In this document: positions 5,339 through 15,421 of the stretch, in pieces
Position numbering within the stretch: position 1 is the stretch's first letter
How the letters are laid out: the number at the start of each line of letters is the position of its first letter
DNA from: Verrucomicrobiia bacterium
GTDB lineage: Bacteria > Verrucomicrobiota > Verrucomicrobiia > Limisphaerales > JAJOIW01
Length of the DNA: 56,853 nucleotides
NCBI GenBank assembly: GCA_030425355.1
Contig: JAUIAG010000002.1
Location: forward strand, 1 to 56,853
Direction of reading: 5' to 3'
The notes under the pieces: model-generated
Seen by the model: only the letters and a program-made list of their open reading frames with translations
What the model was told of the DNA's origin: nothing
Databases searched by the model: none
Program-made: the position numbers and the translations under genes

Positions 5339-6250
5339 TCAGGGGTTGCTCCCAGAATCAGGATAAAGACTGGATTCAGTTCGATAGGCAGTTATTTCAA
5401 TTGGACTGGTTTCGTCACTGAGGAGCGTGAACAGTTCAGGGTCCCGGAGGATTGACTGAATGGATGTCGGGCTGCCATCGAGGAGGCACGAATCAGCGAT
5501 AAGCCGGATGCCATGGCTGTAGTCGGCGTACCAGATGACATGCCCGGCATAGACTGGTTGGATCGGTCTGCCGCCAGGGAGATGCCATCCGTATATCACC
5601 ACACGATCCTTCCGGTCATGGATCATACCGGCAAGAACAACGTCCTTTTTGTGGCCGGCGATGATGGAACATGACTCCCGGTCAGGGCCCATGGCTTCCA
5701 TCTGTTGGTGAATGATCCGGTTGTGTTGCACGAAAACCGGAACGGTTGTCATTTGTGGACCTGGAGGAATTGGCTGCGGCTCAAGCTTGCAGGTAGAGGC
5801 CCTGTAGATTTCATCGACAATCACCCGTGTCGGCAGAGTGCAGCCCAAACGGTCAGCCAGTTTCTGGCCAAGAATGGGCGTCATGGGAACAAGCAGATAG
5901 TCTTCATCGGATCCAAGGCACATATAGTCAGGGGCCACTTTGATATTCACCACTCTCGCCACGCCGTTCTTATCGGTACGGTGAATCAGAATGGATCTGA
6001 AATCACGCAGAAACTCCGGGACATTGCCCCTGATGAATTCCTGGAAGAGACGCTGCTCCCTTTGTTGAAGGGGGAGGTCCTGAAGAACTCCGGACAGTTC
6101 AGCGCCGCCGGCAGCACCGGCTGGCCGGTCCGGAATGTCAAGGCGCCAGACCGGACTTTCCGATTGTGCTCCCGCTCCGGGGATGCCAAAGGCACCGACG
6201 ACAGCAGGCATCAGGAGCGCTATCAGTTTGTTTGTGAACCGTGTGAGCAT
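5339..6250 (-). CDS. Hypothetical exported protein
   Basis: 303 aa ORF with an N-terminal signal-like segment (LIALLMPAVVGAFGIPGAGAQ). No family recognised. Confidence 0.55.
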   Translation of the reverse strand: MLTRFTNKLIALLMPAVVGAFGIPGAGAQSESPVWRLDIPDRPAGAAGGAELSGVLQDLPLQQREQRLFQEFIRGNVPEFLRDFRSILIHRTDKNGVARVVNIKVAPDYMCLGSDEDYLLVPMTPILGQKLADRLGCTLPTRVIVDEIYRASTCKLEPQPIPPGPQMTTVPVFVQHNRIIHQQMEAMGPDRESCSIIAGHKKDVVLAGMIHDRKDRVVIYGWHLPGGRPIQPVYAGHVIWYADYSHGIRLIADSCLLDGSPTSIQSILRDPELFTLLSDETSPIEITAYRTESSLYPDSGSNP

Positions 6251-6808
6251 TTTCTGATTCTTCTCTCTCTACAATGGTATATCCATTCTAAAAACATCTT
6301 TCCAGAGGGGGAATGGCAGGAATGGGTGCGCTGAAGCAGATTCCTTCCAATTGCTGTCTGGGTTACCCGTACTATTCTGGCCTGAGTGGTGTTAATGGCC
6401 ATGGAACCAGCGGTGATGGATGTGACCCACAGACCGGCGAGGCACTCTGAAAATCCGGGCAGGTCAATTGGTTCTGTGGCCCTGTGATGACCACGCCCAG
6501 GCAGGAGGCACAAACCGACAAACAGACATCATCGAACCGGTTACAGGGCCAGGAACCACGGTATAGGAGAAACTGGGATCAAGACGACCACCTCCAGGCC
6601 CCATCCAGAGTAGGGTGAGGTTTTCAGAGATGGCGGGAAAACACTCATCTGAATCTCTTTTTAAGGCTGAGCGATTGAAAGGGGCATACGGGTGGCCCAA
6701 TCGTCATGTGGAATACAGCGAATCCGGTATGGAGGGAAGAGAGAAAGGCCCGCACCGCCATGAAGTCGGCACGGGCCATTTTGGGGACGGACAGTCCCGG
6801 ATGATGCC

Positions 6809-6828
6809 CAGGTGCCGTGTGGCACCTG
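6809..6828 (-). terminator. Perfect 8-bp hairpin downstream of the oxidase operon (possible terminator, no U-tract)
   Basis: CAGGTGCC-GTGT-GGCACCTG, about 30 nt after the stop of the last operon gene (6860). Confidence 0.35.
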
Positions 6829-6859: not shown

Positions 6860-7087
6860 TCAGTCGTCGGAATCGGAAAGGCTGTGCTGCTTGCGCACCA
6901 TGGCAACTTCAGCGGCGTAGGTGTCATTGCGGACTTCCTTGAGAGCCATTCCCGAAAGGACCAGGCAAACAGCCCCCGGGATGTGGAACATGACGACCAG
7001 TTCCGGATGCCCCATGAGTCTCTTTACGCCGACACCGGCAAGGATCAGGAGCACAAACATGGAAAACCAGAAGGTGAATTTTTTCAT
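6860..7087 (-). CDS. Small two-TM membrane protein, last gene of the oxidase operon
   Basis: 75 aa with two hydrophobic helices. ATG start lies 38 nt after the upstream stop on the same strand. Confidence 0.5.
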   Translation of the reverse strand: MKKFTFWFSMFVLLILAGVGVKRLMGHPELVVMFHIPGAVCLVLSGMALKEVRNDTYAAEVAMVRKQHSLSDSDD

Positions 7088-7125
7088 AATCAGAATGGCA
7101 GAGGGTTGGAATGCGGGGAGGACTT

Positions 7126-8040
7126 TCAGTGAGTAGAGGAAGAGGATGCGAGTTTTTCAAGCTGTTGCCCGGACGGTTCATCGGTGGCGGACTTGCCGGC
7201 AAGGAATCGGGTCAGTGCGAAGTATAGCAACGCCACAATGACACAACCACCAACAAAGATCCCGAACTCACGTCCGAAGTTCAGATAATTGTATGGATTA
7301 AGTTCAAGGGTGGTGGATTCAAGTGCCATGCCTCTGCCATCGCTGTCGACAACGTGAATATCGAAAGATCCGGCGATGGGAATGTTGATTCGCCATTCGA
7401 TGAGACTGGCATCCCACCAGTATCCCTCGACACGAAATGGATCCACCGCAAGTGCCGCCTCTGTGCCCTTGTGAGGCCGGACTTCGAGCGAATGAGCCGA
7501 CTTAAAAAGTTCCGGCAGATCTGCATCAGGGTTCGAAGGGACGAATTCCAGGAAGTAGCTGACCTGAATAAGCGCCAGAGGCCGGGACGGGTTCCGGTAA
7601 AAGTTCAGAGTGCCCTCACTGAGCTCTTTGGACCAGCAGAGTTCCCCGCCCCTGTAATCGGGTGGCTCCGGGGATGCGCCGGCGGCGGCTGTTTTCTGAT
7701 CCGGGAAGGCTAGAGCCAGTCCGAGAATCGCCAGAATTCCCGCCACGAGGCTGAGTCCGGTTTTGCCACTCATGATGGACGGAGCGGCATCCGCCGTGAC
7801 TTCCGGTTCAACCTTTCTGTCCCCGTCGTGATGGTGATGTTTTCCGCCGTTGCCGCAGCCGGATTTGGCACAGTTGGAACATCCGCCACATCCACGGACC
7901 GGCAGGGGAGCAGGCTCTGTGGCAGGAGGCCTGACTGCTTGGGATTCAGCCCTGCGGCGACTCATTTTCACCGCGAGAGCAAAGGCGAGGATGCCGCAGA
8001 AAAGAGCGACGTGGAGGATGGTAACAAAAAGGTCAAACAT
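7126..8040 (-). CDS. Membrane protein with a Cys4/His4 cluster and a large extracytoplasmic domain
   Basis: 304 aa with an N-terminal TM. The loop reads RGCGGCSNCAKSGCGNGGKHHHHDGD. A second TM, a soluble domain of about 150 aa and a C-terminal TM follow. Confidence 0.65.
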   Translation of the reverse strand: MFDLFVTILHVALFCGILAFALAVKMSRRRAESQAVRPPATEPAPLPVRGCGGCSNCAKSGCGNGGKHHHHDGDRKVEPEVTADAAPSIMSGKTGLSLVAGILAILGLALAFPDQKTAAAGASPEPPDYRGGELCWSKELSEGTLNFYRNPSRPLALIQVSYFLEFVPSNPDADLPELFKSAHSLEVRPHKGTEAALAVDPFRVEGYWWDASLIEWRINIPIAGSFDIHVVDSDGRGMALESTTLELNPYNYLNFGREFGIFVGGCVIVALLYFALTRFLAGKSATDEPSGQQLEKLASSSSTH

Positions 8041-8087
8041 GTCGTGTAACTTTGAGCCTGACCGTGACCGGGGTCACGATTCGGGAT

Positions 8088-8684
8088 TTACATATGCAGC
8101 AGGTAGAGCCAGAGCAGTGATGTTGCCAGGCCGACCAGGAAAAAGGGCAGCGCCAGCTTCACCTTCGGACGGACTCTCCCATCGATCTGGAAGAGGAAAG
8201 CCGTGGTCGGCATCCTCAACCGGTAGACCATGAACGAGGTCCAGATTGCCGAGGATCCATAGCAGAGCAGGCTGCTTATGGCGGTCCATGAGAGCCCGTG
8301 ACTGAAACTCTGCCAGACCTCGAAGCCGACAGCGAGAGGCAGGTAACCCATTCCGAACCATGCAACCGCCACCGCGGCAAAGAAAGCGAACGGCTTGCGG
8401 TTTTTCTCATGAAAGAGAAACATGAACTGGAAATGGTACAGATACCAGAGCCCCAGCTCCATTCCCTCGAAGGAATGGTCCTCTTTGAGAATATAAAGGG
8501 CGACCGGGATAAGAAATTTGTGCAGAAGCACGTATATCCCGATGAAGAAGTTGAAGCCCACGAGGGCGCCAAACCGCTTCTTGCCCTTGAGTGTCGGGTA
8601 GTGGTGGACACCTTCAGGAAGCTCTTCGTGAAGGTGGTCCAGCCACTTCAAAGGTTTATCAAGTATTTTCAGTGATTTAACCAT
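8088..8684 (-). CDS. His-rich polytopic membrane protein, uncharacterised
   Basis: 198 aa from the ATG at 8684, which overlaps the upstream stop by 16 nt. About 5 TM segments and many conserved-looking His residues (HLH, HHYP, LLHK, FLFHEKN, SFSHG). Confidence 0.6.
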   Translation of the reverse strand: MVKSLKILDKPLKWLDHLHEELPEGVHHYPTLKGKKRFGALVGFNFFIGIYVLLHKFLIPVALYILKEDHSFEGMELGLWYLYHFQFMFLFHEKNRKPFAFFAAVAVAWFGMGYLPLAVGFEVWQSFSHGLSWTAISSLLCYGSSAIWTSFMVYRLRMPTTAFLFQIDGRVRPKVKLALPFFLVGLATSLLWLYLLHM

Positions 8685-8881
8685 TGTTGAAGGTTGGGAA
8701 GCCCGTACCTCATGAAGTAGTAGATGTAGAAGATGATATTCACCGTCCAGATCATGAAGAGGAACCATGGCATTTTGCCGTGCCCGGACTGCGGGGTGAT
8801 TTCCGCCTCCGGTTCAATATAAACTTCGTCTTCCAGGGACTGTGGTGAGGGTGTATCCGGTTGTTTTTCCATAATATTCAA
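8669..8881 (-). CDS. Small membrane protein resembling the N-terminal (FixP_N) segment of CcoP
   Basis: Acidic N-terminus followed by GKMPWFLFMIWTVNIIFYIYYFMRYGLP, similar to the P-x-WW...F...Y...Y-P helix of FixP_N. Start is TTG 8881 or ATG 8872. Confidence 0.5.
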   Translation of the reverse strand: MNIMEKQPDTPSPQSLEDEVYIEPEAEITPQSGHGKMPWFLFMIWTVNIIFYIYYFMRYGLPNLQQWLNH

Positions 8882-8972
8882 ACTGCAGAATTATTAGACA
8901 AATGATTCAGAAGCCACGCCACACGCCACACGGCCGTGAGTCGCGGGCGCGTGGCCTGATGGCCGTCAGAGT

Positions 8973-9221
8973 TCATGCCCTGTCGCCCGATGGCGAGTGT
9001 TCAGGGTCCATGTCTTCGAGTTCATTTTCCAGGATGGAGAACTTGACGGACTCACCGCTCCCGCCTTTCTTGCCGATGGACCACACGAAAAACGCGGCAG
9101 TCGCGAGGATCATGCTGGCGACAAAAAAACTGACAAAAAGAATCAGTATTTTTGAATCGATGCCACAGAAGAAGCAGCCGATCAGCGGTGCGGTGGAGGC
9201 GTGAATCAGAGTTGGAGTCAT
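8973..9221 (-). CDS. Small two-TM membrane protein
   Basis: 82 aa. AAGGAA lies upstream of the ATG, and the start is 15 nt after the upstream stop. Confidence 0.45.
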   Translation of the reverse strand: MTPTLIHASTAPLIGCFFCGIDSKILILFVSFFVASMILATAAFFVWSIGKKGGSGESVKFSILENELEDMDPEHSPSGDRA

Positions 9222-9236
9222 AGAGTGATATATTCC

Positions 9237-9548
9237 TTATTCCCTGGATGTTGTGGTGTGATTGTTGTCTTCCAGCTGGAAGATCTGCATTTTCGGGTCT
9301 TCGATTTCGCGGGCACCGCCGAGGTGTCCGGATATGAACGCCCATGCCATCACGCAGAGGAACGCGAAGCTGAGAATCATATAGATGAGCCCGGCGACGG
9401 TGATGATACTGGTGAGTGAGTCGTTCAGTACGGCGAAAACAGTCATACCGCAAAGGAAGACCATGGATGCGAGGAAGATCCAGAGGACCAGGTTATAGAA
9501 ACCACGGTCTGTTGAGGATTGTTGTGATGTGGTGTTGGCGCTGCTCAT
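9237..9548 (-). CDS. Small membrane protein (position analogous to CcoQ)
   Basis: 103 aa with three hydrophobic helices. AGAAAGG RBS lies about 9 nt before the ATG, and the start is 39 nt after the ccoO stop. Confidence 0.5.
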   Translation of the reverse strand: MSSANTTSQQSSTDRGFYNLVLWIFLASMVFLCGMTVFAVLNDSLTSIITVAGLIYMILSFAFLCVMAWAFISGHLGGAREIEDPKMQIFQLEDNNHTTTSRE

Positions 9549-9587
9549 GATGTACGTGCCTTTCTGTATTGATGTGTCGGAGACGGG

Positions 9588-10169
9588 TTATTCCCCGTCG
9601 GCAACCGGCTGACCAGTCTGTTCAACCTGCGATCCCAGCCACTGCAGATAGGCAACCAGGGCCACAGCCTCGGGCTTGGGGTTCTTTTCCTTGTCGAAAT
9701 ACCACGGATAACCGGGCATGACGGACTGGGGAACTACATCGCGGGGATTGTAGAGGTGGACAAAATGCCAGTCATTCGGGCGCTTTCCGCCCTCCCTGGA
9801 CAGATCCGGTCCGACGCGGCGCGTTCCGAAGAGCTGGGGAAGGTTGAGTGAGTTGTCGTATTCGCCTGGCGTGGAGACCGGGCCATAGCGGAGCGCTTCA
9901 TTGCCTACAGGACGGACGTACTGGCTGTGGCAGTGCCAGCAGGCTTCCTTGACGTAAATGTCGCGGCCTTTGTAGAGGGCTGCTTCATATTCTTCAAGCG
10001 TGCTGTAGTGTTTGGTGAAGTTGTCGGGAATCTCCGTCGGGTGATAATCGATAGCCCCGAGGGACTTGGTCATCATCGCGGGGATCAGGCCAAGGGTGAT
10101 GAAGGCCGTCACCAGCAGTCCGAGTCCGGCAACAAGGAAGATGAAGTTGAATTTTTCAAGGAATTTCAT
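9588..10169 (-). CDS. ccoO: cbb3-type cytochrome c oxidase subunit II (monoheme CcoO)
   Basis: N-terminal anchor, the CWHCHSQYVRP heme motif, RVGPDLSREGGKR and the HLYNPRDVVPQSVMPGY block. Confidence 0.85.
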   Translation of the reverse strand: MKFLEKFNFIFLVAGLGLLVTAFITLGLIPAMMTKSLGAIDYHPTEIPDNFTKHYSTLEEYEAALYKGRDIYVKEACWHCHSQYVRPVGNEALRYGPVSTPGEYDNSLNLPQLFGTRRVGPDLSREGGKRPNDWHFVHLYNPRDVVPQSVMPGYPWYFDKEKNPKPEAVALVAYLQWLGSQVEQTGQPVADGE

Positions 10170-10208
10170 GATCTCTTTCTTCTATCTGGAGTGGATGATG
10201 GTGATGGA

Positions 10209-11639
10209 TTACTTCCCGGATTCGGGGGCAGTGGATCGGGTGAGCGGCTCATTGAGTTTCTGTTCAGAGAATGCCTGTCTGCGGTATTTCCAGGTCATGT
10301 AGATATTGACCACGAAGACAAACTCACTGACGAGGATGGCTGTGCCGGCGAGGGCACGGGTCCACCAGAACGGTTTGGTGGCTTCGACACTGCTGATGAA
10401 GGGAACGAGGTTTTTCCACATATATCCCTGCATGACGCCTGCGGCGAGAAGGTCCATCCACATGACCAGCACACCGACGGTGGCGAGCCAGAAGTGCCAT
10501 TCACACATGGTTCGGGAGTAGAGTTCGGTCTTGAAGATCCGTGGCCACAGGTAATAGATCCACGCGTAGAGCCAGAATGAGAAGGTTCCGAAGAGAACCA
10601 GGTGGGCATGACCGGGCACCCAGTCGGTGAAGTGGATGATTTCCTGGGCGCTCATTGTGACGTGGATGGCGCACTGGATACAGGTGAGGAGGTAGCAGAT
10701 GGATCCCACGGCGATAAAGCGGACCGGGATGGATGAGACGATCTTGCGGTATTCGCCCTGCATGGTGGCGAAGTAGTTGAAGATCACGGTGTAGACCACC
10801 ACGTGAATACCAATACTGGCAACGATGGCGGCATATTGAGACCACATGGGGATTGGGCTCTGCAGGTAGTGGTGGGCACCGTTCATCGGGTAGAAGAACG
10901 CCAGTCCCCAGAAACCGGTGAGAGACAGTGCGTGGCTGTAGACGGGCTTTTTGAGCAGTACCGGAAGGAGGTAATAGACCAGACCAACGCCCAGCGGGGT
11001 GACAAAGAGACCGACGAGGTCGTGGATATACATGGATGTGATGGCGGCGCCACCGCTTCCTGGCATCCAGTACTGCGGAATGAAGTTACCCATGACGTAG
11101 ACAAGTGGCAGCCAGACAAGGGCGGCGGTGATATACCAGACGGTCACGTAGAAGGACTTGTTGCGGGCCTTCCAGATGGGAGCCAGGAAGTTGAAGACGG
11201 CCAGCACGCCGGCAATGGCGATCAGGGGGTCCAGTTCCTTGGGTGTTTCACCCCATTCGACGGCCTGCCCGAAACCGGCAAGGATCATCAGCTCGGAGAG
11301 GACCACCAGCGCGTTGAAAACCCAGAAACAGATCCATCCAAGCTTCTTGGAGAAGGTGGCGTATCCTGTGAGTTTGGGAATGACGTAGTGGAGAATGGCA
11401 AAGAACCCGTTGGCGAGCCATCCGTAGGCCACCGCCATGGTGTGGGTCATCCGCACCCGTCCGGGAGAAAGCAGTTCCACACCGGGGAACGGGTAGAGGT
11501 TGAGGAACTGCAGCGCGTAGGACATCCCTGACAGCACGACGATCAGGGAATAGACGATGGCAGCGATGAAATGGGCTTTGACCAGATCCTCGTAAATTGG
11601 GAACTGCCTGCCCGCTGTCTGTGGGTTATTCGAATTCAT
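10209..11639 (-). CDS. ccoN: cbb3-type (C-family) heme-copper oxidase subunit I (CcoN)
   Basis: Twelve or more TM helices, with His-ligand blocks MYIHDLVG, NGAHHYLQSP and FTDWVPGHAHLVLFG. The ATG at 11639 overlaps the upstream stop by 14 nt. Confidence 0.9.
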   Translation of the reverse strand: MNSNNPQTAGRQFPIYEDLVKAHFIAAIVYSLIVVLSGMSYALQFLNLYPFPGVELLSPGRVRMTHTMAVAYGWLANGFFAILHYVIPKLTGYATFSKKLGWICFWVFNALVVLSELMILAGFGQAVEWGETPKELDPLIAIAGVLAVFNFLAPIWKARNKSFYVTVWYITAALVWLPLVYVMGNFIPQYWMPGSGGAAITSMYIHDLVGLFVTPLGVGLVYYLLPVLLKKPVYSHALSLTGFWGLAFFYPMNGAHHYLQSPIPMWSQYAAIVASIGIHVVVYTVIFNYFATMQGEYRKIVSSIPVRFIAVGSICYLLTCIQCAIHVTMSAQEIIHFTDWVPGHAHLVLFGTFSFWLYAWIYYLWPRIFKTELYSRTMCEWHFWLATVGVLVMWMDLLAAGVMQGYMWKNLVPFISSVEATKPFWWTRALAGTAILVSEFVFVVNIYMTWKYRRQAFSEQKLNEPLTRSTAPESGK

Positions 11640-12510
11640 TCTCGATTGCAATATTGGATGTTTCGGTCGTGGTGGACTGTTTCGGTTCCGGAAGAGCCAT
11701 GGACGGGTTCTTGTAGGAGCGGCGGAGGAATTTGACGTAGGCCACAACTTCCCAGCGCTGATCATCGGAAAGCGTCGAGTTGTAGCCAATCATGGGGGTG
11801 CCGGCGAGGCCGGTGGTAATTGCCTTGAAAACATCTTCCAGTGCGGGACCACTGCCGATGTCATGGGCTTTGCGAAGGTCTGCGGGTTTGACCGGATTCA
11901 TCCAGTTGTCGACCAGGGCCGCGCCGCCCACGCCGTCGCCAGCACCGGTGGATCCATGACAGGTGACACAGAACTGATCGAAGGTCACTTTCCCAAGTGC
12001 CGCCTTGTTGAGCCACTCGTCCTTTTCATGCATCCATGCCGGCGCGGGGGGGAGAGTCAGCTGAACCGGCCTTTCGTCCCACTTCCCGGACTTGTCAAAG
12101 ACCTTGAGATACTGGGCCATGGCCTTGATGTCGTTTTCGGCAAAAAGCCGGAAGCTTGGCATGGAACTGCCGTAAATACCCTCGCGGATGGAGCGTTCTA
12201 TGTCTGCATCAGTGGGGATGCTGTCATAGGCCGTCGAACGGAACTTGAAAACCGCCTTGGTGAAATCCCTTGGCTTCGGATCCAGGCCATAGGCTCCGGG
12301 GCCCTTGCCATTACCTTCCATTCCATGACAGCCGCTGCAGTGATCCGCATACAGTTTCTTGCCCTGTTTGATAAACTCGGGCTTCAGCTTCCCAGCTCCC
12401 TCAAAGTCGGGGAGAGCATAATCCTGGGATGATGCGGTATGATGGGTGCCAATGACCAGTGCCGTTGCCAGCAGCACTTTTGCCCATTTTTTGAAATACC
12501 AGTTATTCAT
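11626..12510 (-). CDS. Membrane-anchored diheme cytochrome c (CcoP-like soluble domains)
   Basis: Two CxxCH motifs (CSGCH and CVTCH) and an N-terminal anchor. The ATG at 12510 is preferred over the TTG at 12540. Confidence 0.85.
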   Translation of the reverse strand: MNNWYFKKWAKVLLATALVIGTHHTASSQDYALPDFEGAGKLKPEFIKQGKKLYADHCSGCHGMEGNGKGPGAYGLDPKPRDFTKAVFKFRSTAYDSIPTDADIERSIREGIYGSSMPSFRLFAENDIKAMAQYLKVFDKSGKWDERPVQLTLPPAPAWMHEKDEWLNKAALGKVTFDQFCVTCHGSTGAGDGVGGAALVDNWMNPVKPADLRKAHDIGSGPALEDVFKAITTGLAGTPMIGYNSTLSDDQRWEVVAYVKFLRRSYKNPSMALPEPKQSTTTETSNIAIENEFE

Positions 12511-12699: not shown

Positions 12700-13191
12700 T
12701 CAGCGCGGGCTGAACCGGTCACCCGGGGCGGCATCCCTGACCCAGGCAAGGAAATCGCCAGCGTCGGGAGAGCCCTCCATGGGGGCCCAATCAGCAAAAA
12801 CAGCCGGATTCTGTGAATCGTAAGGCCCTTCCTTGAACTCGAGGATGGCGGCTTCGGCAGTGAGGGGCAAAACCGTGTGGCAGACATTGGCGGGGATTTC
12901 CATACCCTTTGAGCCGTCGGAATCGGCAAACTCGAAAACCCGGCTCACCGCTCCCTCCGGGTCAAAGAGCACGACGCGGACCCGTCCGCGCAGAACGAGC
13001 ATCACTTCCCATTTATTGGCCTGTGGATGCCGGTGCGGCCGGACGTATGTGCCGTCGACGAGGCCGATGCACAGGCGCTGCACGGCGGATTCGGGGCCGT
13101 CGTGGAAGTTGAGGTGGCTGCGGCGGCGGGGACTGGCAGCCGCCTGCTTCAGAAGCCCGTCCAGCAAATCGTTATTTATGACCTTCTCCAT
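12700..13191 (-). CDS. WbuC-family cupin-fold metalloprotein
   Basis: SPRRRSHLNFH ... GTYVRPHRH ... KWEVMLVLRG matches the WbuC cupin signature as I recall it. Confidence 0.7.
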   Translation of the reverse strand: MEKVINNDLLDGLLKQAAASPRRRSHLNFHDGPESAVQRLCIGLVDGTYVRPHRHPQANKWEVMLVLRGRVRVVLFDPEGAVSRVFEFADSDGSKGMEIPANVCHTVLPLTAEAAILEFKEGPYDSQNPAVFADWAPMEGSPDAGDFLAWVRDAAPGDRFSPR

Positions 13192-13268: not shown

Positions 13269-15308
13269 TCACGAGAATCTGATGCGTGTCGGTTTGCCCT
13301 GGTCCCATCCGCGGGGTTTGGAATCGGAGACCGACTTTATTTTCTTGATTGAAACCTGATTCCCACCGGCTTTTGTGGAGCGGAGCTTGAGGTCGCCGGT
13401 TTCGATGAACTGCTGGTTGACTTTCTGTTTCGGGGAAGGGGTGTATTTGATGTACAGGGTCCCCTCAAACCACGGATTCAGATAGAGCACTTTCGCCCCC
13501 TCGGGAACATACCGGTAGACTTTGTTGAGGATGGTTCCGCCGAACTGGAAGCGTTTGACATAACTCATGGTCTTGAGGTTGTAGACCACGAGCATTTCCT
13601 GTTCCCGGGAAGCGGGGCCGACAAAAAGGACCTCGTTGCCGACAAAGGCTTTCTCCTCGACCTGAGTGACCCGGAAGGTCCCGTCCGCCATCACGATGAC
13701 GATCTTGTCGAGCTGGGACACGGCAAACTGGAACTCCGCACCGTTGACTTTGTATCCAAGGTAGCCTTTTTCGCGGTCGTAGCCGAGTTTGAAGGCCCGG
13801 TGGACGACCTCCTTGGCTGTCACCGTCTCGAAGGAGGTGATCTCCGTCAGCCGCGGAAACTGATCGCGGTACTTTTTCACCAGTCCTTCAAGATGGGAAA
13901 TTGAATACTTGACGACATTCTTGAGGTGTTTCTGGGTCTGTTCCAGTTCCGCCTGGACCTTTTCAAGTTCCTGTTTGTGTTTATTGATATCGAAGAGCGA
14001 AATGCGGCGGATGGGGACCTTGAGCAGCATTTCGACATCATCATCCTTGAGCGGGCGCCACAGATCCTTTTCGAACGGCTTGAAGCCCTTGTAGATATTG
14101 GAGGAGACTTCTTCTGCAGAACTGGCGCTTTCAATTTTCTTGTATATGCGTTCCTCGATAAAGATGCGGACGATGGTGCGGAAGTATATATCCTCGAGCA
14201 GTTTCCCTTCGCGGATGCGGAGTTCCTTTTCGTGCAGTTCGACAAGCCGCTGGGTGTTGCGCTGAAGGACCTCGCTGACCGTCATTTCCACAGGGCGGTT
14301 CCCGTCGATGAGGATGACCCGGCTGGAAATCGTGGTCTCACATTCGGTGAAAGCGTAGAGGGCCTGCATCGTCTTTTCCGCATCGATGCCGGGAGCGAGC
14401 TTCAGTTCGATTTCAATGGTGCTCGAAGTGAAGTCATTGATGGCCTTGATCTTGATTTTGCCCTTTTTGGAGGCGTCCTCGATGGAGGCAATGATCGACT
14501 CGGCGGTGCTTGTCTGGGGAATTTCGCGGATGACCAGCGTTGAAGCGTCCTCGATGTCAATGCGGGCGCGGATCTTGACAGAACCCCGACCGTCATCGTA
14601 GTTCGAGGCGTCCATGAGGGCGCCTTTGGGAAAATCCGGCAGAACTCCAAACGGCTTTTTCCGCAGGATGGCGACCTGTGCCTCGAGGAGTTCAATGAAG
14701 TTGTGCGGCAGAATCCTGGCGGAGAGGCCGACCGCGATGCCCTCGGCTCCCAGCATGAGCAGCAGCGGGATCTTGGCCGGCAGGGTCACGGGTTCTTTCT
14801 CGCGCCCATCATAACGCGGGACAAATTCAGTCAGTTCATCCTGGAACAGTTCTTCACGTGCCAGCTCGGTGAGCCGGCATTCGATGTATCGGGCAGCCGC
14901 GGCGCGGTCACCGGTATAGATATTCCCGAAGTTCCCCTGCCCTTCGATCAGGTATTTCTTGTTGACGAGGACGATCAGTGCTTCAGAGATCGATGCATCG
15001 CCATGAGGGTGAAACTGCATGCAGTTTCCGGTGACGTTGCTGACCTTGTTGAACTTGCCATCGTCCATCTTCTTGAGCACCCACATGATGCGGCGCTGAA
15101 CCGGTTTGAGACCGTCATCGAGATGCGGAATGGCGCGGTCGCGGATGACATAGGACGCATAATCCAGGAAGTTCTGGTTGACCCGCAGCCGGAGGGACTC
15201 CCGGTCTCCATCCGCGGTGAAGGTCCGCGGCGGCTTGTCGTCAAAAAACGGCTTCAGGTCCCTGCCGGAGCCTCTGCGGTTGGAAGTGGTTTTCTTGGTT
15301 GCTGCCAT
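13269..15308 (-). CDS. parC: Type IIA topoisomerase subunit A (ParC-like, short C-terminal domain)
   Basis: DGLKPVQRRIMW and AAARYIECRL (catalytic Tyr). Sits immediately downstream of parE. ATG at 15308. Confidence 0.85.
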   Translation of the reverse strand: MAATKKTTSNRRGSGRDLKPFFDDKPPRTFTADGDRESLRLRVNQNFLDYASYVIRDRAIPHLDDGLKPVQRRIMWVLKKMDDGKFNKVSNVTGNCMQFHPHGDASISEALIVLVNKKYLIEGQGNFGNIYTGDRAAAARYIECRLTELAREELFQDELTEFVPRYDGREKEPVTLPAKIPLLLMLGAEGIAVGLSARILPHNFIELLEAQVAILRKKPFGVLPDFPKGALMDASNYDDGRGSVKIRARIDIEDASTLVIREIPQTSTAESIIASIEDASKKGKIKIKAINDFTSSTIEIELKLAPGIDAEKTMQALYAFTECETTISSRVILIDGNRPVEMTVSEVLQRNTQRLVELHEKELRIREGKLLEDIYFRTIVRIFIEERIYKKIESASSAEEVSSNIYKGFKPFEKDLWRPLKDDDVEMLLKVPIRRISLFDINKHKQELEKVQAELEQTQKHLKNVVKYSISHLEGLVKKYRDQFPRLTEITSFETVTAKEVVHRAFKLGYDREKGYLGYKVNGAEFQFAVSQLDKIVIVMADGTFRVTQVEEKAFVGNEVLFVGPASREQEMLVVYNLKTMSYVKRFQFGGTILNKVYRYVPEGAKVLYLNPWFEGTLYIKYTPSPKQKVNQQFIETGDLKLRSTKAGGNQVSIKKIKSVSDSKPRGWDQGKPTRIRFS

Positions 15309-15421
15309 GCTTTTGCTGTCTGTCGGGGAAAATGTCACACGCCTGAACCAGCTTATGTGTTCACGGAACGCACTGAAAGAAGGTCGGGCGGATGGTGGCT
15401 GTCAGTCACGGAATACCTCGC

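Follow-up and report, generated by a model that had tools for sequence, protein, structure and literature searches.

Layout of the operon

The stretch of DNA analyzed here (the window, 56,853 nt from a Verrucomicrobiia bacterium) carries nine tightly packed open reading frames on its minus strand, at positions 6860-12510. Read 5' to 3', they encode a diheme cytochrome c, CcoN, CcoO, and six small membrane proteins, p103, p82, p67, p198, p304, and p75. The successive spacings are -14, 39, 39, 15, 100, -16, 47, and 38 nt, negative values denoting overlap, so that the genes for the cytochrome c and CcoN share 14 nt and those for p67 and p198 share 16 nt; the gap between p82 and p67 shrinks from 100 to 91 nt if p67 starts at a TTG codon. 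An earlier note on this DNA had described nine packed minus-strand genes, and our check recovered the same set with matching spacings. The overlaps suggest translational coupling. All nine genes are under purifying selection, with dN of 0.07-0.57 relative to the closest relative, a comparison in which synonymous sites are saturated. By hydropathy, p103 and p75 have two transmembrane (TM) segments each, p82 and p67 one each, p304 three, and p198 at least three.

The hairpin that the same note had placed beyond the last gene is also present. Positions 6828..6809 of the minus strand form a perfect 8-bp stem with a 4-nt loop (ΔG -14.4 kcal/mol), 31 nt past the p75 stop codon. It has no U-tract and was not called by a generic consensus terminator scan; it may serve as a terminator or stabilize the RNA.

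A divergent catalytic core

The second gene (11639..10209, minus strand) encodes CcoN, the catalytic subunit I, a protein of 476 residues that matches Pfam COX1 with 229 bits. The third (10169..9588, minus strand) encodes CcoO, the monoheme subunit II, of 193 residues, with a CWHCH motif, a single TM segment at the N terminus, and a Pfam FixO match of 144 bits. Both fall well below the cut-offs of the NCBIfam equivalog models, CcoN with 219 bits against 583 for TIGR00780 and CcoO with 129 bits against 200 for TIGR00781. In a phylogenetic tree, the variant CcoN sequences form a clade with support of 99/98, set apart from canonical CcoN by a long branch. Identity to canonical CcoN is only ≈28-32%. 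Sinorhizobium meliloti FixN and a Verrucomicrobial group of fused CcoNO proteins lie on the canonical side. The best PDB matches of CcoN are the CcoN chains of cbb3 oxidases (6XKW and 3MK7). Its six histidine ligands and the cross-link tyrosine of helix VII are invariant across 28 aligned CcoN sequences and identical to those of canonical cbb3, which likewise has a monoheme CcoO. On this evidence, CcoN is identified as a divergent C-family heme-copper oxidase subunit I.

The low scores of CcoN and CcoO against the equivalog models, together with the resemblance of the diheme cytochrome to the 6H5L diheme cytochrome c (see below), would fit a nitric-oxide reductase or another non-oxygen heme-copper reductase rather than a cbb3 oxygen reductase. 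We regard this reading as highly improbable: the cross-link tyrosine and the three CuB histidines are invariant, similarity to the cNOR subunit NorB (E 6e-9) is far weaker than that to CcoN structures (E 1e-46), and CcoO has a clear FixO family match. With every heme and CuB ligand intact, and the cross-link tyrosine too, the variant enzyme should reduce O2.

A CcoP divided between two genes

The first gene of the operon (12510..11626, minus strand) encodes a diheme cytochrome c of 294 residues with CSGCH and CVTCH motifs, a Pfam Cytochrome_CBB3 match of 85 bits, a signal-like N-terminal segment, and no strong TM helix. It stands first in 31 of 31 nine-gene loci. The earlier reading of the locus as a non-canonical C-family oxidase operon headed by a diheme cytochrome is supported. 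Its closest solved structure is 6H5L_B (E 1e-34), whereas CcoP is matched only at E 4e-7, and the heme module bears no specific resemblance to CcoP. 6H5L_B is itself a diheme cytochrome c that was deposited as a "conserved hypothetical cytochrome protein." The profile of the cytochrome also matches the diheme domain that is fused to CcoO in a deep sister clade (L070-72). We assign the protein as the heme module that stands in for that of CcoP in this oxidase clade.

The membrane helix of CcoP is encoded separately. The p67 gene (8872..8669, minus strand) specifies 67 residues from its ATG, from which the orthologues align, or 70 residues if a TTG at 8881 is used instead. The window's copies of p67 and p82 both lie under Pfam thresholds, and their assignments rest on orthologues and profile comparison. 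For p67, an orthologue from Bdellovibrionales matches FixP_N with 27.2 bits (cut-off 24.9), FixP_N is also the best match of three others (12.7-15.0 bits), and a profile of 35 p67 sequences aligns to the CcoP N terminus with an hhalign probability of 91.6% (E 8e-7). The protein, previously counted as unknown, is thus best described as a free-standing FixP_N helix, the membrane anchor of CcoP as a gene of its own. CcoP has therefore been split and not just relocated.

CcoS-type proteins

CcoS is a maturation factor known from Rhodobacter capsulatus genetics. Although the window's p82 (9221..8973, minus strand) lies under the Pfam detection level, its orthologues score 29.9, 25.7, 23.8-24.8, and 22.5 bits against FixS (PF03597; cut-off 23.1), and the p82 family profile matches canonical CcoS with 86-91% hhalign probability. 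These scores identify p82 as a divergent CcoS/FixS-type maturation peptide, contrary to the earlier statement that the operon has no recognizable CcoS. Like other members of PF03597, p82 has one TM helix followed by a W-x-x-x-x-G-x-F/Y...E..K/P..L tail; unlike them, it carries an N-terminal CxxCGxD extension. This extension, CFFCGID in the window (9156..9176, minus strand), is predicted to be periplasmic from its position N-terminal to the TM helix. The 37 orthologues compared, which come from at least three phyla, all have C16, C19, D22, and F29, whereas canonical CcoS proteins of the same order have no cysteine at all. In the deep clade, the p82-type motif comes after a signal-peptide-like segment.

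A second departure from canonical CcoS is the two-TM protein p103 (9548..9237, minus strand), whose gene adjoins that of p82. It has no Pfam or NCBIfam match, and hhalign relates it to p82 with 90-96% probability, compared with 13-26% for canonical CcoS. Its CcoS-like module consists of the second helix and the tail, and all of 36 orthologues keep Y56, F63, E83, and K86. We interpret p103 as a two-helix paralogue of p82. Its gene occupies the place of ccoQ in canonical operons.

Three membrane proteins that match no family

The earlier note had called all six small proteins uncharacterized. HMM comparison places p82 and p67 in families, and the description holds for p198, p304, and p75, which match no known family or fold; by these searches, three to four of the six are without known relatives.

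The polytopic protein p198 (8684..8088, minus strand) has no Pfam or NCBIfam match, and its AlphaFold2 model (pLDDT 84), which contains five helices, matched no PDB fold at E<1. Searched exhaustively with a profile, 1.84 billion representatives yielded just six proteins at E<1e-10, along with about 10 distant proteins of ≈330 residues that share a module with it. Three residues of the first TM helix, Y51, H55, and P60, are near-invariant. Orthologues outside Verrucomicrobiota carry an extra C-terminal domain with two cysteines that are kept in five of six aligned sequences.

From its AlphaFold2 model and hydropathy, p304 (8040..7126, minus strand) has two TM helices with a Cys4/His4 cluster between them, followed by an Ig-like periplasmic β-sandwich and a C-terminal TM anchor. 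Conservation across phyla is limited to the last ≈120 residues, the sandwich and anchor; there, G224 never varies, and conservation reaches 90% or more at Y226, F255, and E258. Over residues ≈131-250, pLDDT mostly exceeds 90 (89-96 per 10-residue block). Foldseek returned only generic Ig-fold matches at E ≈1e-3, CrdA, PmoD, and P19 among them. The architecture, a membrane-anchored periplasmic β-sandwich encoded beside cbb3 genes, recalls CcoH/FixH and the Ig-like C-terminal domain of CcoG, but the likeness ends there: the anchor of p304 is C-terminal rather than N-terminal, 4Fe-4S motifs are missing, and a profile comparison with FixH and the CcoG domain gave no match (hhalign probability <1%), leaving any sequence relationship undetectable.

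The Cys4/His4 cluster (CGGCSNCAKSGC...HHHH; 7819..7890, minus strand) is predicted to be cytoplasmic by the positive-inside rule. The cluster noted earlier is indeed present in the window, yet it is confined to the window's own small subclade: it occurs in the six closest homologues, with variable cysteine spacing, and is lacking in L004, L019, and L021 as well as in every non-Verrucomicrobial orthologue. In L019 and L021, a CxxC lies within the periplasmic domain instead. A role for p304 as a direct copper chaperone was considered and is argued against by a periplasmic domain without conserved His, Met, or Cys.

The last gene (7087..6860, minus strand) encodes p75, a two-TM hairpin protein with no Pfam or NCBIfam match. 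K22, R23, H35, and P37 are invariant in 29 orthologues, and outside Verrucomicrobiota its gene overlaps that of the p304 core by 31-43 nt.

Conservation of the gene set across phyla

The nine genes occur in identical order in 31 loci, seven from Verrucomicrobiota and 24 from other lineages. The same genes in the same order at 31 independent loci place the layout far beyond chance, and this neighborhood comparison upholds the six extra proteins as conserved companions of ccoN and ccoO. It does not uphold the narrower suggestion that they are lineage-specific, as the set recurs in other phyla; we describe it as specific to an oxidase clade that, from these comparisons, is spread over several phyla. 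Some of the 24 non-Verrucomicrobial loci are labeled Bdellovibrionales. Flanking genes are conserved solely in the closest relative, L003. The operon is rare and patchy within Verrucomicrobiota, occurring in six of 201 genomes of the order; p198 accompanies the variant CcoN in all six and is found in none of the other 195.

The set is not always complete. One sublineage (L064, L066-69) lacks p304 and p75 and keeps p198, and p198, p304, p75, and p82 are all missing from L062 and from the Planctomycete locus L006, the latter having p103. These losses indicate that the missing proteins are not universally required.

A probable cbb3-type subfamily with its own accessory proteins

Canonical cbb3 oxidases consist of CcoNOQP and are served by the CcoGHIS maturation genes (Pseudomonas stutzeri 3MK7 and 5DJQ; R. 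capsulatus 6XKW). In the order to which the window belongs, the canonical cluster reads ccoI-ccoS-ccoNO-65aa-ccoP-ccoG-fixH-DsbD_2 and is complete in 15 of 18 genomes. The variant operon shares with it a FixP_N-type helix, a CcoS-type peptide, and a diheme c-type electron-entry module. It differs in dividing CcoP between a first-gene diheme protein and a free helix, in having a CcoS with an invariant CxxC and a two-TM paralogue, in adding three family-less membrane proteins, and in the company it keeps: CcoG, FixH, and DsbD_2 were not found by tblastn in the window's genome, and CcoG (TIGR02745) had no match in 13 carrier genomes, in a search that included no positive control drawn from that order. 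The earlier observation that CcoG is missing is supported.

We consider it likely that the nine genes constitute a single operon encoding a cbb3-type (C-family) cytochrome c oxidase of a distinct subfamily that spans several phyla, along with accessory proteins peculiar to that subfamily. CcoN and CcoO form the catalytic core, the upstream diheme cytochrome c replaces the two heme domains of CcoP, p67 supplies its membrane helix, and p82 is a CcoS-type maturation peptide whose invariant CxxC adjoins the helix. p198, p304, and p75, found only beside the variant CcoN clade, are candidate subunits or assembly and cofactor-insertion factors. The accessory set probably stands in for CcoG and CcoH during assembly, or else contributes additional subunits. 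Since CcoG was not matched in carriers, and FixH/CcoH and DsbD_2 are missing from the window's genome, all three being carried by canonical clusters of the order, the most likely role of the set is to insert CuB and heme and to stabilize the complex, with the CxxC of p82, H55 of p198, and H35 of p75 as candidate ligand-relay residues.

Alternatively, all six small proteins could be permanent supernumerary subunits, cofactors being inserted by unlinked general machinery such as P1B-type ATPases, three of which, perhaps including a CcoI, are encoded elsewhere in the window's genome. The strict gene order, the overlaps with structural genes, the homology of p67 to a structural helix of canonical enzymes, and the precedent of CcoQ and CcoM, small extra helices known in cbb3 (PMC4742706), all speak for this possibility. 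We find it doubtful, given the homology of p82 to the maturation factor CcoS, the absence of p304 and p75 from some sublineages, and the evolution of p304, the fastest-evolving gene of the operon (23-42% identity), at a rate too high for a tightly packed core subunit.

It seems improbable that p198, p304, and p75 instead form a separate co-transcribed membrane module outside biogenesis, such as a sensor, a transporter, or a docking or electron-input adaptor to a partner such as ACIII. Non-Verrucomicrobial operons do consistently have a larger gap of 87-132 nt ahead of the p304-core/p75 pair, that pair has been lost independently of p198, ACIII genes are present in the window's genome, and the modeled Ig domain of p304 could serve as a docking surface. 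Against this stand the restriction of the three proteins to the neighborhood of variant CcoN and their lack of transporter, sensor, redox, heme c, or Fe-S motifs.

A related arrangement is seen in L070-72, the deep sister clade. Its CcoO carries the diheme domain as a fusion, in place of a separate first gene, and p103, p198, p304, and p75, which the nine-gene operon adds, are absent. The two belong to the same larger CcoN lineage (≈42% identity) and have homologous diheme modules, and the CcoS of the sister clade also contains a CxxC.

Organization of the operon

We consider it likely that the operon at 6860-12510 of the minus strand encodes a C-family (cbb3) oxidase whose CcoP is split and which carries an accessory set of its own. 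The nine minus-strand open reading frames claimed in the earlier note were all found at their places, and the coordinates used here are those of the most plausible starts. A diheme cytochrome c (12510..11626, 294 aa) is followed by CcoN (11639..10209, 476 aa), CcoO (10169..9588, 193 aa), and six small or accessory proteins that we name by their length: p103 (9548..9237), p82 (9221..8973), p67 (8872..8669), p198 (8684..8088), p304 (8040..7126), and p75 (7087..6860). A TTG start at 8881 would give p67 70 aa; its orthologues align from the ATG. The intergenic spacings, in gene order, are -14, 39, 39, 15, 100, -16, 47, and 38 nt. Comparison with the locus of the closest relative (L003; CcoN 91% identical) revealed saturated synonymous sites and low dN (0.07 for CcoN, 0.13 for p67, 0.20 for p198, 0.24 for p75, 0.34-0.37 for p82 and p103, and 0.57 for p304), from which we conclude that all nine genes are real and evolve under purifying selection.

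The hairpin that had been reported after the operon is likewise present on the minus strand (6828..6809), with a perfect 8-bp stem, a 4-nt loop, a folding energy of -14.4 kcal/mol, and no U-tract. It is absent from the calls of a consensus terminator scan, and scanning for promoters and terminators gave no signal exceeding chance. Between the hairpin and the next gene (5339-6250) lie ≈560 nt (6251-6808) that contain short overlapping ORFs only and no family signal. Upstream of the operon, positions 12700-13191 encode a 163-aa protein that adjoins the operon elsewhere in L003 only, and positions 13269-15338 encode a ParC/GyrA-like protein that is short, at 689 aa.

The core enzyme

Pfam and NCBIfam assign the core genes to COX1/ccoN, FixO/ccoO, and a two-heme cytochrome c. 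CcoO scores 144.5 bits against FixO (PF02433; cut-off 29.6), and the gene for this monoheme subunit adjoins that for CcoN. Both proteins fall far short of the NCBIfam equivalog cut-offs (TIGR00780, 219 versus 583 for CcoN; TIGR00781, 129 versus 200 for CcoO) and are divergent subfamily members, not canonical equivalogs. The window's CcoN and 27 of 27 other CcoN sequences keep all six histidine ligands (two for heme b, one for heme b3, and three for CuB) and the cross-link tyrosine of helix VII, six residues ahead of the HH pair; the ligand positions were also aligned to 6XKW. The best solved relatives are cbb3 CcoN chains (6XKW, E 1e-46), with NorB of cNOR only at 6e-9, and an identity as NOR was rejected on the ligands. 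The enzyme is a C-family oxidase with intact catalytic ligands. Apart from it, the window's genome encodes a single heme-copper oxidase, which belongs to the A family and lies on a different contig.

The diheme cytochrome, encoded by the first gene, lacks FixP_N. Its nearest solved relative is 6H5L_B (E 1e-34), a cytochrome c that is likewise diheme and that we take to be the Kuenenia protein Kustc0457, and CcoP matches at just 4e-7. A single-protein CcoP, in which a FixP_N anchor is joined to two c-type heme domains and encoded after ccoO, was not found in the operon.

p67, p82, and p103

The six proteins encoded after CcoO had been described as uncharacterised, with no recognisable CcoS among them. 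For the window copies, Pfam and NCBIfam gave chance-level matches only, and a search of the whole own genome with Pfam FixS and FixP_N left the operon's p82 and p67 unmatched. As families, p82 and p67 are recognisable through orthologues that match FixS and FixP_N, respectively.

The p67 orthologue of L063, a locus from a Bdellovibrionales MAG, scores 27.2 bits against FixP_N (PF14715; gathering cut-off 24.9 bits). FixP_N is also the top match of three other orthologues (12.7-15.0 bits), and for a profile of 35 p67 sequences, the match to the N-terminal part of CcoP, taken from 18 canonical proteins, reaches 91.6% (E 8e-7). We assign p67 on these matches as a putative stand-alone FixP_N helix, such that the heme module and the anchor helix of CcoP would be separate proteins. 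That the membrane helix of CcoP is retained though its heme domains are detached suggests a separate role for the helix. In the arrangement that we propose, p67 would fill the site of the CcoP helix on CcoN, and the diheme cytochrome would bind peripherally, as it does in the sister clade, where it is part of a fusion with CcoO, and pass electrons to CcoO.

Orthologues of p82 score 29.9, 25.7, 24.8 (in G441, a surveyed genome of the window's order), and 23.8 bits against FixS (PF03597; gathering cut-off 23.1 bits), and two more lie below the cut-off at 22.5 (L004) and 15.4 bits. When the p82 family profile was compared with 18 aligned canonical CcoS proteins from the same order, the match probability was 86-91%. 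An N-terminal C-x-x-C-G-x-D motif is invariant in 37 p82 sequences, and canonical CcoS proteins of the same order contain no cysteine. The motif is probably periplasmic because in the deep clade (L070-72) it comes after a signal-peptide-like segment.

Two transmembrane helices are found in p103, of which the second, with the tail, gives a match of 90-96% to p82 and of 13-26% to CcoS; we therefore read p103 as a CcoS-like paralogue in the ccoQ position. With its two helices, p103 does not fit CcoQ/FixQ itself (PF05545), a single-TM peptide, the window copy being unmatched and the L004 orthologue reaching an E value of 5.2, and p103 matches the 65-aa protein that occupies the ccoQ position in canonical clusters of the order at only 1-5%. 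To judge from these profiles, a CcoS-type peptide and its paralogue are encoded inside the structural operon. Like CcoS, p82 and p103 may both function in inserting cofactors, and the CxxC might relay Cu(I).

p198, p304, and p75

Searched exhaustively with a p198 profile, 1.84 billion representatives yielded only six proteins at E<1e-10, plus ≈10 further proteins of ≈330 aa, which represent a longer form. The AlphaFold2 (AF2) model is a helical bundle (pLDDT 84) with no fold match in the PDB; no PDB sequence match was obtained either, the profile of the longer relatives included, and the distant relatives have no Pfam match. Three residues of its first helix, Y51, H55, and P60, show at least 90% conservation across phyla. 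The p75 protein forms a hairpin of two helices, in which K22, R23, H35, and P37 are invariant.

In p304, AF2 predicts an Ig-like sandwich at approximately residues 131-250, with pLDDT mostly >90 (89-96 per 10-residue block), to which Foldseek matched generic Ig folds only (E ≈1e-3). An N-terminal helix with a Cys4/His4 cluster is present in the six closest homologues only, with varying cysteine spacing, and two other Verrucomicrobial orthologues carry a CxxC within the Ig-like domain. This apparently repeated, independent gain of cysteine motifs hints at metal handling by a protein whose domain has no conserved ligand residues. A periplasmic copper chaperone is unlikely, because the domain keeps no histidine, methionine, or cysteine, and the Foldseek matches to CrdA, PmoD, and P19 are weak. 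We also considered p304 as a minimal CcoG. CcoG/FixG (TIGR02745; Fer4_18 plus FixG_C) is defined by two CxxCxxCxxxCP motifs and an Ig-like C-terminal FixG_C domain; p304 has no Pfam match, hhalign gives <1%, and its cysteine cluster is not conserved. FixH/CcoH (PF05751) was rejected as well, with no Pfam match and hhalign values of 0.0-0.2% against 15 FixH proteins of the order. FixH has an N-terminal transmembrane helix followed by a periplasmic domain, whereas the anchor of p304 is C-terminal.

All six accessory proteins are labeled "hypothetical protein" at NCBI, and three to four of them appear, from these searches, to be conserved proteins without family, fold match, or annotation. p198, p304, and p75 could be extra subunits or could substitute for CcoG, CcoH, and DsbD_2 in assembly, and we place the assembly reading slightly ahead.

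Conservation of gene order

Profiles of all nine proteins were searched against the fetched loci. The order cytC-CcoN-CcoO-p103-p82-p67-p198-p304-p75 is kept in seven of seven Verrucomicrobiota loci, where the flanking genes are conserved no further than L003. It recurs in L063, L065, L073, and L075 and in 20 of 20 loci from a 201-genome phylum sample, one of which lacks a p304-core match at the threshold used. Conservation of the six ORFs beside ccoNO is thereby borne out, with the nine-gene order present in 31 loci. Overlaps of 16-28 nt (p67/p198) and 31-43 nt (p304 core/p75) accompany this order, and in the non-Verrucomicrobial operons, a constant gap of 87-132 nt lies ahead of the p304 core. 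The p198 of non-Verrucomicrobial loci (L063-L066, L073, and L075) is 302-343 aa long and has an extra, presumably periplasmic, C-terminal domain with two cysteines conserved in five of six aligned sequences. In L063, L065, L073, and L075, p304 consists of the 114-124-aa core alone, a β-sandwich with a C-terminal anchor. A profile comparison showed no relationship between the extra p198 domain and p304, so the domain was not taken as a p304 counterpart.

Shorter versions of the operon also exist. In the sublineage of L064 and L066-69, it stops after p198. The Planctomycete locus L006 retains only p103 and p67 of the accessory genes, and after the oxidase this Planctomycetaceae MAG encodes (L006:12876-16997) a P1B ATPase whose N-terminal head is rich in cysteine, DsbD_2, DUF4405, and a small protein with a CMACH motif; L006 is a different accessory solution in the same oxidase lineage. 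L062 retains p103 alone; the MFS gene adjoining its short operon was not adopted as CcoA, as its motifs did not decide the matter. In the deep clade, CcoN is accompanied by a fusion of CcoO with the diheme domain and by a CxxC-bearing CcoS.

Distribution and phylogeny of the oxidase

The window's order was surveyed in 201 genomes, exactly six of which encode a CcoN at 73-100% identity. The remaining CcoN matches in the order (≈28-32% identity, in ORFs of 720-800 aa) are canonical fused CcoNO proteins. p198 is found in the same six genomes and no others, adjoining the variant CcoN each time, and in a 401-genome phylum sample it is found in the window's genome alone. A CcoN search of a 5.8-billion-protein collection yielded at least 2,000 clusters at E<=1e-60 (2,173 returned); every one of the best 120 of these 2,173 is at least 58% identical, and many of these 120 are named as Bdellovibrionales, Bacteriovoracaceae, or "Deltaproteobacteria" MAGs. 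The variant was detected in 25 of 201 sampled genomes (≈12%) from the phylum of one carrier and, in another phylum, in 6 of 93, plus three of the deep type. Some genomes carry the variant and the fused canonical CcoNO together.

In a maximum-likelihood tree, the variant CcoN sequences form one clade (99/98 support) on a long branch from the canonical group, which is tight and holds both the Verrucomicrobial fused CcoNO and FixN of S. meliloti. The Verrucomicrobial variant sequences are monophyletic within the variant clade (95/92). The Planctomycete CcoN (46% identity) branches more deeply than these, and L070-72 (≈42%) more deeply again. The tree sets the variant apart as an oxidase clade of its own that is not peculiar to Verrucomicrobia. 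The accessory set had been proposed to be lineage-specific, which does not fit the occurrence of the same oxidase clade and operon in several phyla and in just 6 of 201 genomes of the window's order.

One genome of this order has, at L044 (G446:C1:4304228-4305876), a third, strongly divergent CcoN that is not fused (32% identity, end branch 3.7 in the tree); a FixS-family peptide (25 bits) is encoded beside it.

Maturation genes and a possible second assembly route

In the window's order, the canonical cluster runs ccoI-ccoS-ccoNO (fused)-65aa-ccoP (FixP_N; monoheme)-ccoG-fixH-DsbD_2 and is conserved in 15-18 of 18 genomes. With the proteins of this cluster as queries, CcoG, FixH, and DsbD_2 were not found in the window's genome, in agreement with the earlier statement that no recognisable CcoG is present. 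TIGR02745 (CcoG) matched in none of 13 carrier genomes, in a search run without an in-order positive control. The operon has no gene for a CcoI-type Cu-ATPase; three P1B ATPases (25-31% identity) are encoded on other contigs, and sequence cannot separate CcoI from CopA among them.

cbb3 oxidases support bacterial respiration at very low oxygen, and the insertion of CuB and heme into them is understood only in part. The operon type described here is widespread and well defined, and our literature search found no paper on it or on its small proteins. It represents a large natural group of cbb3 oxidases, scattered Verrucomicrobiota and Planctomycetota included, apparently without CcoG and without ccoH beside the oxidase. 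In their place, the group consistently carries a CcoS with cysteines, a paralogue of CcoS, and three "hypothetical" proteins, which make up a compact, defined set of candidates, and family names are possible for five or six "hypothetical proteins" per operon. More tentatively, p82, p103, p198, p304, and p75 might constitute a second route of cbb3 biogenesis that dispenses with CcoG, CcoH, and DsbD_2, a proposal that we regard as rather unlikely; the CxxC motif together with the invariant membrane histidines H55 of p198 and H35 of p75 would then deliver Cu(I), heme b, or both to CcoN, from the side of the membrane or of the periplasm.

Within the canonical clusters, ccoS lies immediately upstream of ccoNO (G414, G402, G442, and others; L043 and L045-L061). 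In the ccoQ position, these clusters encode a 65-aa protein that Pfam does not recognize and that matches the CcoS-like p82 profile at 81%.

Weak FixS and FixP_N Pfam matches in the search of the window's own genome drew attention to another contig, C204. There (C204:3216-5885, covered in part by loci L008 and L014), a 453-aa polytopic protein is encoded right after genes like those of alternative complex III (ACIII), namely ActD-, ActE-, and ActF-like genes. It is a degenerate CcoN homologue, with 65.5 bits against the CcoN profile and no match to Pfam COX1: the first heme-b histidine has given way to another residue, only one histidine of the HH pair is left, and the GHAH region is unaligned. 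Next come genes for a genuine member of the FixO family of cytochromes (52 bits) and for a monoheme cytochrome that resembles CcoP and shows a weak signal for FixP_N. The locus has the appearance of an ACIII to which a ligand-poor "pseudo-CcoN" and its CcoO and CcoP partners are attached.
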